This document shows positions 22,446 through 57,230 of a DNA stretch of 64,000 nucleotides, one piece after another. The notes under the pieces were generated by a model. It did not search any database. It saw only the letters and a program-made list of their open reading frames with translations, and was not told the DNA's origin. Location: NCBI GenBank assembly GCA_043804925.1, contig JAZDIP010000106.1, positions 796 through 64,795 of the forward strand, read 5' to 3'. Source of the stretch: a bacterium. GTDB lineage: Bacteria > Bacteroidota > Ignavibacteria > Kapaibacteriales > UBA2268. The position numbers and the translations under genes are program-made. The first letter of the stretch is position 1. The number at the start of each line of letters is the position of its first letter.

Positions 22446-22721
22446 TGAATTTGAAAACATGGAATATTAATTTTCATGTTATTTATTAACTGGCTAAATA
22501 AAATAGATTAAATACAAGTGCACAACTTTTAGACAAATATTTTACTTGCGGTGACACAAAGGAATAAGAGATATTAAATACTTGAGAAACGATTATTTGT
22601 TATATTGAGAGATTGGAATGAGTGAATAAAAAATATGTTAATGGATAATAAATAAATTTAGTTGTAATTAAATTAACTATTTATTTATATTTAACATTAA
22701 TAATTTAGCTAAATTTGTAGT

Positions 22722-23630
22722 ATGGAAAAAATGAAAAATATGATTGTTGAAAGAAAATATTTGCCAGCCTTAAGTAAGCTCTTTTCGGCAATTGTGATGA
22801 ATAGTATTGAACAAAAAGGAACTTCTAAATATATGATAGAAGTTTGTAAAAATAGTGGAATGGATAAGTATCTTGATCCTTCAATAAAGATATCTCAAGT
22901 GTTTGATCTTGTTTATAACTTAATCATTAAAGATTATAGAAATGAGTATATATATAAAAATATTATTGTTCAAAAATTACTTCTTGGTAAACACTCGCTT
23001 AATACAACACAACTATTGACAGAGTTTAGAATAGGAAAAAATAAAGCAGATGTAATATTATTAAACGGTACTTCCTATGTTTACGAAATTAAATCCGAGT
23101 ATGACTCCTTAAAACGGTTGGAAATTCAATTGCGTTCTTATTTAGATGCTTTTGATTTTATAAATGTTATTACATATCCATCCTTAGTTAACAAGATTCT
23201 ACCAGTTATTTCAGATAAAATTGGTGTTTTAGTTTTGACGAATAAAAATACCATATCAACAATTCGCCGACCAAAATCAAATAGAAAAAATATTAATCCT
23301 TTGGTTTTATTTGATTCTCTTAGAAAAGACGAATATTTAAATATAATCAATAAATATTATAGATATATTCCAGATGTACCAAATACAAAAATAAATAAAT
23401 ACTGTAAAGAATTATTTTCAAAAATACCTCCAAATGAAGCACATGATTTGGTTATTAATGTATTAAAAGAAAGAAATCATTCAAATATACTCAAAGAATT
23501 TATCAACAAAGCACCTAAATCTACTTTTGCCTATGCTTTAAGTATTGGTGATAAAAAAAAGAAGTTAGAAAGACTTATTGAGATATTTGATTCAAAGATT
23601 GAGTATAAGAGTTTTTCAAAAGTAAATTAG
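22722..23630 (+). CDS. PD-(D/E)xK-type nuclease-fold protein, sce7726-like (recalled from memory)
   Basis: 302 aa. A candidate catalytic core ADVILLNGTSYVYEIKSE (D ... E-x-K). The coding sequence is AT-rich compared with its neighbours. Confidence 0.55.
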   Translation: MEKMKNMIVERKYLPALSKLFSAIVMNSIEQKGTSKYMIEVCKNSGMDKYLDPSIKISQVFDLVYNLIIKDYRNEYIYKNIIVQKLLLGKHSLNTTQLLTEFRIGKNKADVILLNGTSYVYEIKSEYDSLKRLEIQLRSYLDAFDFINVITYPSLVNKILPVISDKIGVLVLTNKNTISTIRRPKSNRKNINPLVLFDSLRKDEYLNIINKYYRYIPDVPNTKINKYCKELFSKIPPNEAHDLVINVLKERNHSNILKEFINKAPKSTFAYALSIGDKKKKLERLIEIFDSKIEYKSFSKVN

Positions 23631-23640
23631 AGGTTAAAAT

Positions 23641-24579
23641 ATGTATTATCCATATTTAAGGGGAAAACAATTTGAATTAATTTTACTGAGAGATAACGCC
23701 GAATTTATTTCAAAGAATAATATATATCCGATTATAGAACCAGTGAAAACTGATTATAATGCACTACTGCGTGCTATAAAAATATTAAATGAAAATAACG
23801 TAGATTTTGTTTTAGTTGTTAATCCACAAGTTGGTGAAAAACCTATTGATTTTAAAAATTTTTTACAAACTCTTGAATCAGGGAATTTTCTAAAAAACTC
23901 AAAATTATCAATAGGATATATTCTCAATTCAAAATCAAAAATAAAAGAGATTGAATTTCTATTTAACAAATATATACATAACAGTTTTTCAATCATTCAT
24001 TATGGAAGTTCATTTGATAAAGAAATAATAAATATTTTAAAAGAACAAAAAAACATTAATAGACATATTTTTATTGATGGTTTTGCTGGAAAATTATATC
24101 AAAGACAATTCAAGGGTGATGGAATAGCCAGAGCTTTAATTAGAAATGGGTTTAAAGCAAAAAAGAAAAATTCAGATTACCCCTATAATGAGCATTTCTC
24201 TGATTTACATGTTACATATGACGATGAAGGAATGGAAGGATTTGGAGATTTTTTAATCGTTGGAGATGATTATTCAGAAACAGGGGGACCAGCTTATGCA
24301 GTTGCTATTCATTTAACATATATTGATAATGAAGATATGTTTATTTATCATTTTATCTCTGATAGAACTGACTCCCCAACTGATCCTGGAGGTAAATTTT
24401 TTGAAGCACTAGAAAAACTTGTCTCAGAGGTAAATAAACCAAATTCACTTATTTTTAGGTCAAAAGCTTGCCATGAATATTTGAATCTATTTAAAAGAAA
24501 GCATTATCCTGGACTTGGATTTATTAAAAAATTGTCAATGCAACATCATATCGAACTAATGGCTGATTTTTTAAAATAA
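23641..24579 (+). CDS. sce7725-like hypothetical protein (recalled from memory), partner of the upstream gene
   Basis: 312 aa. The N-terminus MYYPYLRGKQFELILLRDN resembles the sce7725 family start. It starts 10 bp after the previous stop, with a GAGGT RBS. Confidence 0.5.
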   Translation: MYYPYLRGKQFELILLRDNAEFISKNNIYPIIEPVKTDYNALLRAIKILNENNVDFVLVVNPQVGEKPIDFKNFLQTLESGNFLKNSKLSIGYILNSKSKIKEIEFLFNKYIHNSFSIIHYGSSFDKEIINILKEQKNINRHIFIDGFAGKLYQRQFKGDGIARALIRNGFKAKKKNSDYPYNEHFSDLHVTYDDEGMEGFGDFLIVGDDYSETGGPAYAVAIHLTYIDNEDMFIYHFISDRTDSPTDPGGKFFEALEKLVSEVNKPNSLIFRSKACHEYLNLFKRKHYPGLGFIKKLSMQHHIELMADFLK

Positions 24580-24592
24580 AAGAAATAATATT

Positions 24593-25609
24593 ATGCTTTA
24601 TTGCTGCCCAAATTGTTTTACAGATATTTTTTTACAAAATCAAATACGAGCTCTTAGTAAGAAACAGGGTAATTGCTCATTTTGTAAAACAAAAAATACC
24701 AAATTAATTAAACCAATAGAATTAATTGATCGATTTGAGCCTTTGTTAAATCTATATGAAAAAGATAATAATGGATTATATCTCAACGAATTAATACAAT
24801 CTGACTGGAAGGTTTTTCAATTCAAAAACTCATCAAGCCAAAAAAAATTATTAAATGCACTTTCGGATGATTTTACTGATTATAGTAAAAAATATAGACC
24901 AATTTTATCAAAGGAACGCAAAAATATTGAGCAATGGGAAAGTTTTAGAGAAGAGTTGAAGCATCATAACAGATTTTTCCCGAAAAACGCAATCAATCTT
25001 AATCAATTGGAGCCATTTGGCAAATATCTCGGATTAATACTTAAGCCAGGTTCACAAAAGTTCTACCGAGCTAGATTGAATACAACAGGCAAACCTATTG
25101 TATTATCGAAAATGGGTAAACCACCTAATAATATTGTTTCAAATGGGAGGGCTAATCCACTTGGAATTTCTTATTTATATGTTGCATCTACCATTGATAC
25201 TGCAATTGCAGAAATTAGAGGACAAAAAGGTGAATTAATTACTGTTGCTGAATTCGAATTAAAAAAAAATTTGGAATTAGCAGATTTACGAGATCCTATT
25301 AAAACAATTAGCCCATTTGATTTTAACTCTAATGATGAATTAGAATTGATATATAAAAATATGCCTTTTCTGATTTTACTCGGTAATGAACTATCAAAAC
25401 CCGTTATGCCAAGGGAGGCAAATTTAGAATATCTTCCGAGCCAATACCTTTCTGAATTATTTAAACATATTGGTTTCCACGGAATAATATATAGAAGCTC
25501 TATTTCAGATGGAAATAATTACGTAATTTTTGAAGATAAAAGATTAAAACCTTATAATACATATCAGTTTATAATTAAAGACGTACAAACTTTTCATGAA
25601 AAAATTTAA
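24593..25609 (+). CDS. Zinc-ribbon + RES-domain protein (putative NAD+-targeting effector)
   Basis: N-terminal C4 zinc ribbon: CCPNCF...(22 aa)...CSFCKT. RES-domain hallmarks: GRANPLGISYLYVASTIDTAIAEI (Arg/Glu) and GIIYRSSISDGNNYVIF (Ser). Confidence 0.65.
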   Translation: MLYCCPNCFTDIFLQNQIRALSKKQGNCSFCKTKNTKLIKPIELIDRFEPLLNLYEKDNNGLYLNELIQSDWKVFQFKNSSSQKKLLNALSDDFTDYSKKYRPILSKERKNIEQWESFREELKHHNRFFPKNAINLNQLEPFGKYLGLILKPGSQKFYRARLNTTGKPIVLSKMGKPPNNIVSNGRANPLGISYLYVASTIDTAIAEIRGQKGELITVAEFELKKNLELADLRDPIKTISPFDFNSNDELELIYKNMPFLILLGNELSKPVMPREANLEYLPSQYLSELFKHIGFHGIIYRSSISDGNNYVIFEDKRLKPYNTYQFIIKDVQTFHEKI

Positions 25610-54357: not shown

Positions 54358-54659
54358 AAACAACCTGATAATGATTAAATACTTACATAATACAAAAATA
54401 GGAAATAATTATCTTTGTTTAAATATAATTAACCACAAATATTTGAAGTGTAAAAGTGTAAAAGGGATTAGGGTAATTTTTACGGTTACAGTATCTGATT
54501 TATTCGTAGAGTTTGCATTGAACTTTTTTTTGAATAAATAACAAAGAGCATTATATCTGATTATTATATTTAAAATCAATAATTCATAATAATTATAACA
54601 ATTTTTTTTGTAAATTGTTTTTAAAAATATTGTTAACACAAAACAGTCATGTTAAATAT

Positions 54660-55379
54660 ATGAAAAGTACTGAAATAAAATTACCTAAAAAAATAACACC
54701 GTGTCCAATTATAGATGCGTTGTTGGAGATTAGGTTTTCAATTAATACTGATCCAAATGCTGTATTTGGACAATTATATTCATATTTCAAAGAATCATTT
54801 TCAAAGCCAGAATCTTTACCAATTTTACAAGTACCTGAATATATAAGAAAAGTTGACCCGAATTTTCAATTCAAACCTCATTATCGACTTGAAAAGGATG
54901 GGTTTATTCTACAAATTGGTTCAGATGTTTTAACGATTAGTTCTTTTCCAGAATATATTGGATGGAATAATTTCTCTGAAATGATTTATGAAATATTAAA
55001 AAAAGTGAAAACTTCTGATATAATTGATAGAATTTCAAGGCTTGGTTTGAGATATGTTAATTTTTTTGAATTGAATATTTTCGACCATATAAATTTAGAT
55101 GTTCATATGACTGGAAATTCTATTACAGAAAAAAATATTATAATAAAAACTGAAATAAATGGTGATGATTTTAAGCAAACATTACAAATTTCAAATCATG
55201 CACAAAGTGGTGAAAAATTTGGTTCAATAATTGATATTGATACTTTTAAAGATATTGAATTAGAAGATTTTTTTAATAATCAAGAAAAGTTGATAGAATT
55301 TGTACATTTACAAGAAAAACACTTATTTTTTAGTTTATTAAAAGATGAATTTTTGCAAAATTTTAATCCGGAGTATTAG
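54660..55379 (+). CDS. Hypothetical protein, TIGR04255-like (recalled N-terminal P-I-x-E/D-A-x-x-E-I-R-F motif)
   Basis: MKSTEIKLPKKITPCPIIDALLEIRFS... Very AT-rich. First gene of a 3-gene operon. Confidence 0.5.
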   Translation: MKSTEIKLPKKITPCPIIDALLEIRFSINTDPNAVFGQLYSYFKESFSKPESLPILQVPEYIRKVDPNFQFKPHYRLEKDGFILQIGSDVLTISSFPEYIGWNNFSEMIYEILKKVKTSDIIDRISRLGLRYVNFFELNIFDHINLDVHMTGNSITEKNIIIKTEINGDDFKQTLQISNHAQSGEKFGSIIDIDTFKDIELEDFFNNQEKLIEFVHLQEKHLFFSLLKDEFLQNFNPEY

Positions 55380-55381
55380 AA

Positions 55382-55705
55382 ATGTCTACTGTAACAAATA
55401 CAACAACTTCAACCGCAATTTTATTTTTCGCATTAACATCAATTAATCCGACAATGTATAGTAATCCTTATTACTCTACTGATAATTTGATTCCTTTAAA
55501 AAATCATTCTTATCGTGTCAATAAAGATTTAGTTTATTTGAAAAATATAGAATTTGATGAATCAAAAAGTTACATGTTGATTACTAATGAAAATGAAATA
55601 TTTAATGTTTTATCGAATTTCTCAAATAAAATATTACATCACTTAGTTGATATTGAACCTGAATATTCTGATATATTAAATAAGCATTTTTGGGAATTAA
55701 TATGA
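55382..55705 (+). CDS. Hypothetical protein
   Basis: 107 aa. Starts 3 bp after the previous stop. Confidence 0.45.
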   Translation: MSTVTNTTTSTAILFFALTSINPTMYSNPYYSTDNLIPLKNHSYRVNKDLVYLKNIEFDESKSYMLITNENEIFNVLSNFSNKILHHLVDIEPEYSDILNKHFWELI

Positions 55706-56319
55706 AAATTGAAGATATTGATCTTTATTTACCAAAATTTCTGTCAGCGGAATCCTATAGAATATTAATAAAAGGACTTAATGACTTTCCTGAAAATATT
55801 GATACAAGGTTATATACTACCTATTTAAATCAAAAAAATTTAATTTATCAAGGAGATGGAATTCAAGACTTATTAGTAATTAATCTACCTAAAAGCGAAA
55901 TTAATAAAGTTCCATGTATGATATTGTCAAATACATGTGATATTGATTTGCATAATAAACGAAAATTACCAACAAAAATAGTTTATACCCCTATATTTAA
56001 TCTTGAAAAATTTTATAAAAAGTTAAAATCAGAATCAAAGGATAAAGAAGGCATACTTTCCTTTATTAAATCTGTAAAAAGACAGGAAGTATCACAGATA
56101 TTTTATTTACCAAAATTAAATGAAAAAATTGATGAATCTATAATATTTTTTGATTTTATCTGTAGCTGCGATAATGGATTTATTGATAGAGAAAATTTAA
56201 AAACTCAGAGATTATTTACTTTAAGTGATTATGGATCGTACTTGTTCATATTTAAATTATCAATTCATTTTACAAGAATTCAAGACAAAGTTGAAAGAAG
56301 AAGTATTATCGATGAATAA
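55702..56319 (+). CDS. Hypothetical protein
   Basis: ATGA overlap with the previous gene. 205 aa with several Cys (CMILSNTCD, FICSCDNG). Confidence 0.5.
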   Translation: MKIEDIDLYLPKFLSAESYRILIKGLNDFPENIDTRLYTTYLNQKNLIYQGDGIQDLLVINLPKSEINKVPCMILSNTCDIDLHNKRKLPTKIVYTPIFNLEKFYKKLKSESKDKEGILSFIKSVKRQEVSQIFYLPKLNEKIDESIIFFDFICSCDNGFIDRENLKTQRLFTLSDYGSYLFIFKLSIHFTRIQDKVERRSIIDE

Positions 56320-56606
56320 TTTTTGAGGGTGTAAACTAAGGTTTTCTTAAGTATGTCTTATTGATTATCTACTCTCTTAGCCATTATATCATGAACTTAA
56401 ATTTGGAGTTCCCCCAATATTATGGACAAAAAATTAAGATAGTTTCTTCCTTTCATAGTCAATAAGAGTATGGTGAAAACCATTTCAAAATCATTTCGAA
56501 ACTAATATAAAACTATTAGTTTTATATTAGTTTTATAATAGTTTTCTTGCATTTAGTTTTCGGCGATATATATTCGCATTGAGTTTAAAATTATTTTTAT
56601 GAATCA

Positions 56607-57230
56607 ATGCGAAGGTGCTTAATGAACAACGAAATCACAACCACAGAAAAAAAACCCTGGGAACAGCTCAAAGGCGAAAAATCCAGGCAATTTTTAGCTT
56701 TTTGCCAATACCTCGAGCTTGGCAACAGGCGTAAATTCAGCAATATCGCATCCTATACCAATGTATCTCCGGGTTGTATTCACAATTGGGCTCAAAAATG
56801 GAATTGGGAAGAAAGAGCTTCGGCTTTCGACAGGCATTCTATAGAAATGAATAAAAAGGAAAAAAGGGAGCAATACGAAAAAGTTAAAAATATTCACTCA
56901 AAAAGTATGAATAATATGTCGCTTCTTATCTACAAACTCATTGATTTAATCAATAAAAAAACCCGCTCTGAGCTTAACAAAATGTCGGATATGGAGCTTA
57001 CGGATTTTTATAAAGCCCTTAAATTATTAACTAATATCCTGCCTTCCCTTTCGGATATCGCTTCTGCCAATTTGAGTCAGTCCAAACCTCTGTGGCAGGA
57101 AGAAGAAACTCCTTTGGATTTTATGACTATTTACGATAAACACCCAGAATTGATTGATGATGTTAACGACTTACTTGGCAAAATAATCAATGCGGAAACT
57201 AATGATGCTCCTTTATTTAATCGAATATAG
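56607..57230 (+). CDS. Putative phage terminase small subunit (by position and predicted HTH)
   Basis: About 200 aa directly upstream of terL. Its N-terminal third has a helix-turn-helix-like segment (FSNIASYTNVSPGCIHNWAQKW). Confidence 0.4.
   Translation: MRRCLMNNEITTTEKKPWEQLKGEKSRQFLAFCQYLELGNRRKFSNIASYTNVSPGCIHNWAQKWNWEERASAFDRHSIEMNKKEKREQYEKVKNIHSKSMNNMSLLIYKLIDLINKKTRSELNKMSDMELTDFYKALKLLTNILPSLSDIASANLSQSKPLWQEEETPLDFMTIYDKHPELIDDVNDLLGKIINAETNDAPLFNRI

Follow-up and report, generated by a model that had tools for sequence, protein, structure and literature searches.

The locus described here is a three-gene cassette in a 64,000-nucleotide stretch (the window) of contig JAZDIP010000106.1, from a Kapaibacteriales bacterium (Bacteroidota; GenBank assembly GCA_043804925.1). 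Its third gene (gene 3) encodes the RES-domain protein under study, and its closest characterised relatives are the aRES proteins and the gop-beta-cII system of satellite phage P4. aRES proteins combine a RES domain with PF18870 in 300-600 residues and were described by Osterman et al. of the Sorek laboratory in January 2026 as stand-alone, non-operonic single-gene defence (bioRxiv 10.64898/2026.01.28.702374). In the same report, three members guard E. coli against phages, with growth arrest; the proteins drain nicotinamide adenine dinucleotide (NAD+), yielding nicotinamide and ADP-ribose-1''-phosphate (ADPR-1''-phosphate), and point mutants of the predicted active site lose defence. The plasmids of its Table S4 include R182A, R184A and R215A constructs, and its catalogue includes Rhizobium phaseoli R723 and Ralstonia solanacearum UW757. 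The fusion of a Zn ribbon, HEPN/RES-NTD1 and RES had been catalogued in 2013 by Anantharaman et al., who record fusions of HEPN/RES-NTD1 with either HEPN or RES domains (PMC3710099).

gop-beta-cII of P4 (Ghisotti 1990; Rousset et al. 2022, PMC9122126) guards against lambda and P1, with Gop being toxic when beta is absent; gop and beta were first described as toxin-antitoxin (TA)-like (PMC9122126). The phage accessory gene orf184 triggers gop-beta-cII toxicity (Silas et al. 2023). PD-lambda-2 is another three-gene, TA-like defence system, with a Beta-family component C "related to a P4 phage antitoxin" that is unneeded for neutralisation and needed for defence (Vassallo et al. 2022, PMC9519451).

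RES-Xre TA pairs (MbcT-MbcA, 6fkg; P. putida Xre-RES, 6gw6; NatT) share with gene 3 a RES/ADP-ribosyltransferase (ART)-like fold and the R-E-S residues, and the expected chemistry is common to both, namely phosphorolysis or depletion of NAD+. Their toxins are single-domain proteins of ~150-200 residues with an adjacent Xre/DUF2384 antitoxin, whereas gene 3, at 338 residues, has neither feature and carries a ~150-residue N-terminal Zn-ribbon/NTD1 extension ahead of its RES core.

Set against these systems, the three genes at 22722-25609 are best read, with a probability of roughly 0.6, as a horizontally acquired operon that forms a gop-beta-cII-like abortive-infection or defence cassette, in which Gop would be replaced by an aRES-type NADase gated by its partners. 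Homologies, conserved catalytic residues, operon structure, linkage and mobility carry this reading. Feature positions are collected in Table 1.

Table 1. Positions of the cassette genes and their features in the window
Feature	Position	Strand	Description
Gene 3 (gene under study)	24593-25609	+	ATG start, 338 residues; Zn-ribbon + HEPN/RES-NTD1 + RES, aRES-like putative NAD+ phosphorylase effector
C4 metal-binding module of gene 3	24602-24685	+	C4/C5-x2-C8 ... C28-x2-C31, read from sequence
HEPN/RES N-terminal domain 1 (PF18870) of gene 3	24659-24985	+	Pfam match, mostly helical
RES domain of gene 3	25136-25534	+	Pfam match, residues 182-314
Gene 1	22722-23630	+	sce7726-family, 302 residues; P4 cII homologue; putative RecB/Cas4-like PD-(D/E)xK fold
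Putative nuclease motif of gene 1	23022-23141	+	E101 ... A109-D110 ... E122-x-K124 ... D128 ... Q136-x3-Y140
Gene 2	23641-24579	+	sce7725-family, 312 residues; predicted TIM-barrel-like; probable distant P4 beta (PF14350) homologue
Conserved segment of gene 2	24157-24297	+	residues 173-219, densest run of family-invariant residues, pLDDT <50
Presumed promoter region, 5' of cassette	22449-22721	+	273 bp, no open reading frame, 20.5% GC; promoter role putative

Gene 3 and its relation to aRES proteins

In hmmscan, gene 3 matches the RES family PF08808 (E 8.7e-14, 52.3 bits against a 23.2-bit cut-off) and, at residues 23-131, PF18870, HEPN_RES_NTD1 (E 4.3e-8, 34.0 bits against 27.4). Its AlphaFold2 model, built from an input alignment of 22 sequences, has a predicted local distance difference test (pLDDT) score of 80.8 and a predicted template modelling (pTM) score of 0.75; pLDDT exceeds 90 across the first 90 residues and is 92-96 at residues 1-40. 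Helices of NTD1 span residues 41-52, 64-72, 80-90 and 113-125. In Foldseek, the best solved structures are the RES toxins MbcT (6fkg, E 1.6e-4) and P. putida Xre-RES (9r35/6gw6), followed by ParT and the ART catalytic domains of PARP/tankyrase; 6d0i also matches. The N-terminus, MLYCCPNCFTDIFLQNQIRALSKKQGNCSFC, places C5-x2-C8 and C28-x2-C31 around a 19-residue spacer, with an additional cysteine at C4. This C4 motif is kept in 216 of 223 full-length homologues (spacer of 19 residues in 183) and is also present in the three tested aRES proteins (ICHKC...ICSYC).

The first-pass annotation of this DNA, made from the letters alone, had assigned gene 3 a RES domain. That assignment holds: the translation contains both of the peptides that it quoted, GRANPLGISYLYVASTIDTAIAEI and YRSSISDGNNYVIF, PF08808 matches, and structure prediction, which the annotation had proposed as a check, returns RES toxins first. 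The CxxC pairs of its C4 zinc ribbon are likewise present, with the spacer corrected from 22 to 19 residues. What it took for a linker of about 120 residues is a folded, named domain, PF18870, and the architecture that it called unusual was catalogued in 2013, is a known Pfam domain pair and defines aRES. A Zn-ribbon-RES fusion without Xre is thus already known, and the cassette genes already carry NCBIfam family names.

The search for gene 3 homologues returned 607, of which the best 120 are 56-100% identical and similar in length; gene 3 is therefore not a chance open reading frame (ORF). In the family alignment the catalytic candidates R159, R161, R186, E207 and S302/S303 are all invariant, R159 and R161 lying just N-terminal to the Pfam RES match.

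Compared with the N-terminal 399 residues of aRES from E. coli UC5 (Table S4 of the aRES report), gene 3 aligns end to end in BLASTP (E 5e-13, 20% identity) and over 302 columns in hhalign (97.9%). The two are collinear over their full length in the order CxxC-x19-CxxC, PF18870, RES, and share the motifs FxRAR, GRxN and AIAE(I/V)R. Within these motifs R159, R161 and R186 of gene 3 align with R182, R184 and R215, the three arginines changed to alanine in aRES. By these alignments gene 3 is a distant relative of the anti-phage, NAD+-destroying aRES proteins, and its RES domain would be expected to deplete NAD+ to nicotinamide and ADPR-1''-phosphate.

Gene 3 has the RES domain, PF18870 and a length within 300-600 residues, and would count as an aRES protein because both Pfam domains and the length satisfy the published filter, with the reservation that PF18870 was there called by hhsearch at >=80% probability and here by hmmscan. 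It differs from the tested enterobacterial aRES proteins in its ~20% identity and in being ~60-100 residues shorter. It also differs in context: aRES is stand-alone, whereas gene 3 is the third gene of an sce7726-sce7725-RES operon with gaps of 10-13 bp, a triad kept in ~120 loci. The published aRES catalogue may already hold cassette members unremarked, since Rhizobium phaseoli N261, a sister strain of R723, has its RES gene inside an annotated cassette, and R. pseudosolanacearum megaplasmids contain adjoining matches to all three cassette proteins in the same order.

Genes 1 and 2 and the P4 cII and beta proteins

Gene 1 belongs to the sce7726 family (NCBIfam NF033832, E 6e-58) and matches both the P4 cII model of PADLOC ('cll', PDLC02989; E 1.3e-22) and P4 cII itself in BLASTP (E 5e-17), a protein that RefSeq names 'sce7726 family protein'. 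Across 26 sce7726 members including P4 cII, down to 24% identity, E101, A109, D110, E122, K124, D128 and Q136 never vary, and at least 90% retain Y140. The pattern D...ExK...QxxxY is the signature of RecB/Cas4-type PD-(D/E)xK nucleases. A profile of the sce7726 core finds 4ic1_A as its best PDB sequence match, at a non-significant E of 0.3, with AD, EIK and Q..Y aligned. We take 4IC1 to be the Cas4 protein SSO0001, and the literature mentions 4IC1 together with Cas4. The full sce7726 profile retrieved only low-complexity CagY repeats from the PDB, and no Pfam family matches any of the 26 members. We infer a RecB/Cas4-like PD-(D/E)xK nuclease fold for gene 1. On a Staphylococcus aureus plasmid (locus L062, 4983-5846; locus numbers are ours), a solo sce7726-family gene directly follows the R subunit of a type I restriction system, which suggests that the activity of the cII-like protein is not confined to the triad.

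Gene 2 is a member of the sce7725 family (NF033831, E 6.4e-96), a large family in which 1,206 cluster representatives (clustered at 50% identity) reach E <= 1e-3. Its AlphaFold2 model (pLDDT 74, pTM 0.78) resembles generic TIM barrels in Foldseek, among them glycoside hydrolase family 84 (GH84) 2xm2 (E 1.5e-4, TM 0.40), the de novo design 8k7m and muconate cycloisomerase. Residues 173-219 include the invariant K176, N177, Y180, P181, E184, H185, F186, S187, H190, E196, G197, F201, G202, D203, G208 and G215-A218, among others, and are a candidate active-site or partner-binding lid. D203, H224, H237, S240 and H303 are invariant even at 30% identity. Such features suggest that sce7725 is not a passive antitoxin but an enzyme, or a protein whose lid depends on a partner. 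Given that conserved polar residues are kept across the family, a small-molecule role is conceivable, in which the TIM barrel would make or destroy a signal rather than just bind the toxin.

Aligned in hhalign as a diverse profile of 143 sequences (effective sequence number, Neff, 5.3), sce7725 scores 90.7% (E 1.2e-6) against the Beta family, PF14350, over 140-218 columns, and is collinear over nearly the whole length at relaxed settings. Controls score far lower: ten column-shuffled profiles reach <=0.8%, the reversed profile 3.3% and an unrelated RES profile 0.2%. Gene 2 and P4 beta are also of similar length and have an N-terminal YYPxLR..E..L motif in common. sce7725 is probably a distant homologue of P4 beta. 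Among viral folds, gene 2 best matches an uncharacterised protein of a Gordonia phage (E 1.4e-6); a tblastn search of P4 beta against phages did not retrieve this phage.

The cassette resembles gop-beta-cII in its three genes, its carriage on mobile elements and its cII homologue, gene 1; in both, a toxic third component is restrained by the others, a restraint that for this cassette is presumed. The toxins differ: Gop, of 133 residues, resembles a small membrane protein, with weak matches to membrane-protein families, and is unrelated to RES. A direct relationship between Gop and the RES family was considered and rejected (hhalign, 0.2%), and the PADLOC 'gop' model has no match among the cassette proteins. 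The PADLOC gop, beta and cll models represent P4 gop-beta-cII, whose DefenseFinder name we take to be 'Rst_gop_beta_cll'; current defence annotation probably misses the cassette, because PADLOC models recognise only one of its three genes, gene 1. PD-lambda-2 pairs a HigB-like protein with an Xre-peptidase fusion and has no cII-like and no RES protein, and its component C matches P4 beta (E 8e-14), not sce7725. That the PD-lambda-2 Beta-family protein is needed for defence and not for neutralisation provides a precedent for a beta-like protein as a sensor or licensing factor, and the findings on gop-beta-cII and PD-lambda-2 together indicate that Beta-family proteins regulate or license toxic effectors in two validated systems.

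The two families also meet outside P4. In a lambdoid prophage-like region of E. coli pSTEC1024_3 (L065, 4965-6600), a 192-residue sce7726-family gene is convergent with a 'beta family protein' gene (PF14350), and an sce7726-family gene and a beta family gene are also paired in Pasteurella phage Pmp11. Both pairs independently hint at a beta/cII-type pairing beyond P4. A literature search found no paper assigning a function to sce7725 or sce7726, and no functional description of the three-gene cassette was found in the searchable literature.

Linkage and mobility of the cassette

In the window, gaps of 10 bp and 13 bp separate gene 1 from gene 2 and gene 2 from gene 3, and the downstream neighbour of gene 3 is a convergent LysE transporter gene. 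With sce7725 and LysE as the neighbours, no helix-turn-helix (HTH)/Xre (DUF2384) antitoxin ORF lies on either side of gene 3, in agreement with the first-pass annotation. A hidden antitoxin is ruled out by the 10 and 13 bp between the cassette genes. Two antisense ORFs were examined as candidate genes and rejected. One (23138-23350, minus strand, 70 residues) lies inside sce7726 and has tblastn matches in 39 loci, which are an artefact, because the conserved sense frame produces them and 23 of the 39 contain stops; the other (23754-23996, inside the cassette) also has tblastn matches elsewhere and is not conserved as an open frame. Upstream of gene 1, promoter-like hexamers occur at 22605-22634 and 22662-22691, the scan total being no higher than in shuffled sequence, and the region has no DNA similarity to other cassette loci.

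Among 56 loci from species-representative genomes, all 45 with enough upstream DNA read sce7726, sce7725, RES in this order, and the remaining 11 begin inside the cassette at a contig end. A further 80 metagenome loci, found via sce7725, have sce7726 upstream wherever there is room and RES downstream in all but three; the full triad is present in about 70, most of the others being cut by contig ends. Gaps between cassette genes are ~0-15 bp across loci, and Pseudorhizobium, Moraxella and Rhizobium plasmids have the triad already annotated in RefSeq. In total, triad order is kept in ~120 loci with sufficient flanking DNA, from ~20 phyla and down to 40% identity, and across loci the three proteins lose identity to their window counterparts in parallel (Spearman 0.73-0.84). 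Gene 3 is strictly linked to sce7726-sce7725. The first-pass annotation had suggested that upstream proteins regulate gene 3, a suggestion that fits this fixed order and correlated divergence as well as the neutralisation of Gop by P4 beta; it had missed the three-gene cassette and its relation to gop-beta-cII.

Two plasmid cassettes are interrupted by insertion sequences. On Glutamicibacter pQL1 (L061), IS6100 immediately precedes a RES gene of the cassette type that stands alone, and on an Arthrobacter plasmid (L064) sce7725 is truncated by IS3 and the RES gene is missing. In one locus (L117, 3331-5001), the RES ORF runs without a stop into an arginyl-tRNA-synthetase-like sequence, likely because the stop codon was lost or the assembly is faulty.

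This linkage bears directly on the explanation that the locus holds two independent units, gene 3 being a stand-alone aRES protein that senses phage by itself and sce7726-sce7725 a separate, co-travelling system. We consider it unlikely. It accords with the single-gene defence of aRES proteins, with solo RES relatives such as that of a Bacillus cereus plasmid (33% identity), with the occurrence of sce7726 on its own in S. aureus and Mycolicibacterium, and with the pairing of sce7725 with other third genes. Two unlinked systems should, however, separate frequently, whereas order and near-zero spacing are fixed in the ~120 loci and the three proteins diverge together. Moreover, plasmid relatives at ~34-38% identity all lie in a cassette, bar the IS6100-severed Glutamicibacter copy; a Moraxella cassette copy (30%) overlaps the solo Bacillus relatives (27-33%) in identity.

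Cassette hosts comprise ~20 phylum-level groups, including Bacteroidota, Pseudomonadota, Desulfobacterota, Campylobacterota, Nitrospirota, Planctomycetota, Spirochaetota, KSB1, Atribacterota, Cloacimonadota and Verrucomicrobiota, and some copies from unrelated phyla are 56-70% identical. A complete cassette also occurs in two archaeal-binned metagenome-assembled genomes (MAGs), assigned to Nanoarchaeota (L038) and Archaeoglobaceae (L048), with 40-54% identity to the window proteins, through either inter-domain transfer or binning error. The cassette is carried by an integrative and conjugative element (ICE) of Salmonella houtenae and by conjugative plasmids, and a genome paper mentions a P. 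aeruginosa integrative and mobilizable element (IME) that holds it. In the window, the GC content of the cassette is 26.9%, against 34.9 +/- 4.3% in other ORFs. It is flanked by tetratricopeptide repeat (TPR), outer-membrane protein (OMP), SPOR and TonB genes on one side and by genes for LysE and a type IX secretion system (T9SS) cargo protein on the other, and these flanking genes have no counterparts in any other cassette locus. Low GC content and flanks unrelated between loci identify the cassette as a horizontally transferred unit. Some loci adjoin restriction-modification (R-M) or BREX-type genes; defence genes, comprising type I/II methyltransferases, ResIII, PglX-like and AbiEii-like AAA_21 genes, are found in the flanks of a minority of 57 loci.

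Mobility also invites a second explanation, of similarly low probability, in which the cassette serves mainly to stabilise plasmids, ICEs and IMEs through addiction (post-segregational killing), with RES as toxin, sce7725 as antitoxin and any anti-phage effect incidental. Carriage on conjugative plasmids, an ICE and an IME fits such a role, as do the original TA-like description of P4 Gop and beta and the standing of RES domains as classical TA toxins; an addiction role would still be consistent with defence. It accounts less well for the window and many MAG loci, where the cassette lies in the chromosome and no adjoining genes can be recognised as those of a mobile element. Nor does a 312-residue TIM barrel with invariant His, Asp and Lys resemble a labile antitoxin, and aRES and gop-beta-cII, the closest characterised relatives, both defend against phage.

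Proposed mechanism and exchangeable third gene

By analogy with these relatives, the cassette would have an anti-phage role in which genes 1 and 2 stand in for an antitoxin, keeping gene 3 silent and tying its release to infection. Gene 3 would act as the effector. On activation, phosphorolysis of NAD+ by its RES domain would yield nicotinamide and ADP-ribose-1''-phosphate, and the loss of NAD+ would arrest the infected cell. More speculatively, the nuclease-fold protein of gene 1 may recognise invading DNA or a phage product, and the TIM barrel of gene 2 may restrain or license gene 3, possibly via the Zn-ribbon/NTD1 module. That the RES domain is instead catalytically dead, or an ADP-ribosyltransferase with a protein or nucleic-acid target (compare ParT, which modifies Prs), is unlikely: despite the resemblance of the model to ParT and PARP-type transferases and an identity to aRES of only 20%, its candidate catalytic residues are invariant, the arginines align with those mutated in aRES, and the best structure matches are the NAD+ phosphorylase MbcT and an Xre-RES toxin.

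Several observations weigh against a partner-gated, gop-beta-cII-like defence cassette. aRES defends as a single gene, so the effector might work without partners. In P4, cII is convergent with a co-directional gop-beta pair, an order and orientation that differ from those of the cassette. The nuclease fold of sce7726 rests on a motif and the non-significant PDB match. Gene 2 matches no Pfam family and neither Pfam PF14350 nor the PADLOC 'beta' model; shallow sce7725 profiles scored 1.1% and 7.4% against beta, with only the N-terminal YYPxLR..E..L...I.P motif aligned, and P4 beta is not in the top 50 viral fold matches of gene 2. Finally, the neighbours of the window cassette are envelope and housekeeping genes and do not make up a defence island, and flank defence genes are only occasional in other loci, a frequency that has no baseline for enrichment.

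The third position of the cassette varies. In two metagenome cassettes (L091, 3872-5140; L109, 4364-5629), the Zn-ribbon-NTD1-RES protein has an extra C-terminal cold-shock domain (CSD, PF00313), which is nucleic-acid-binding. In another locus (L100, 3031-6141), sce7726-sce7725 is followed, with no RES gene, by a 143-residue PadR-like/PDC-M19A-like (PADLOC) protein and a 251-residue proteasome-family (PF00227) hydrolase. The same PadR-like and hydrolase pair follows sce7725 in L099 (50-2204), on a contig that begins at the 5' edge of sce7725, and may be an alternative effector set. On Enterococcus faecium p114-2 (L059, 5306-7513) and a Listeria 'phage' contig (L151, 3108-5513), a divergent sce7725 (31% identity) precedes a GNAT acetyltransferase; the ORF upstream of it has a D...ExK-like pattern and was rejected as sce7726 at 0.8% in hhalign.

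The third position is thus exchangeable, which supports a modular design. A broader reading, which we put forward tentatively and consider doubtful, is that sce7726 and sce7725 form a portable infection-sensing and licensing module that gates various effectors, comprising the aRES NADase, the RES-cold-shock fusion, Gop and possibly the hydrolase or GNAT protein. If its TIM barrel made or destroyed a small-molecule signal, such a module would constitute a new signalling-type defence family and would explain the action of gop-beta-cII and PD-lambda-2.

The cassette joins aRES, published as a single-gene system, with gop-beta-cII, a P4 system of unexplained mechanism. If the gop-beta-cII-like reading is correct, the beta/cII pair would be the conserved core and the toxin the exchangeable part, which would offer a handle on the activation mechanism. 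The tally of NAD+-depleting defence systems would then need extending, and phage counters to aRES (the NARP1-AP phosphatase and aRad1 inhibitors) should matter for cassette hosts too.

Elsewhere in the window, three ORFs of 254, 209 and 207 residues at 54615-57230 have no Pfam match, and the first two have a GC content of 24.3% and 23.5%; this region is possibly a second horizontally acquired islet.

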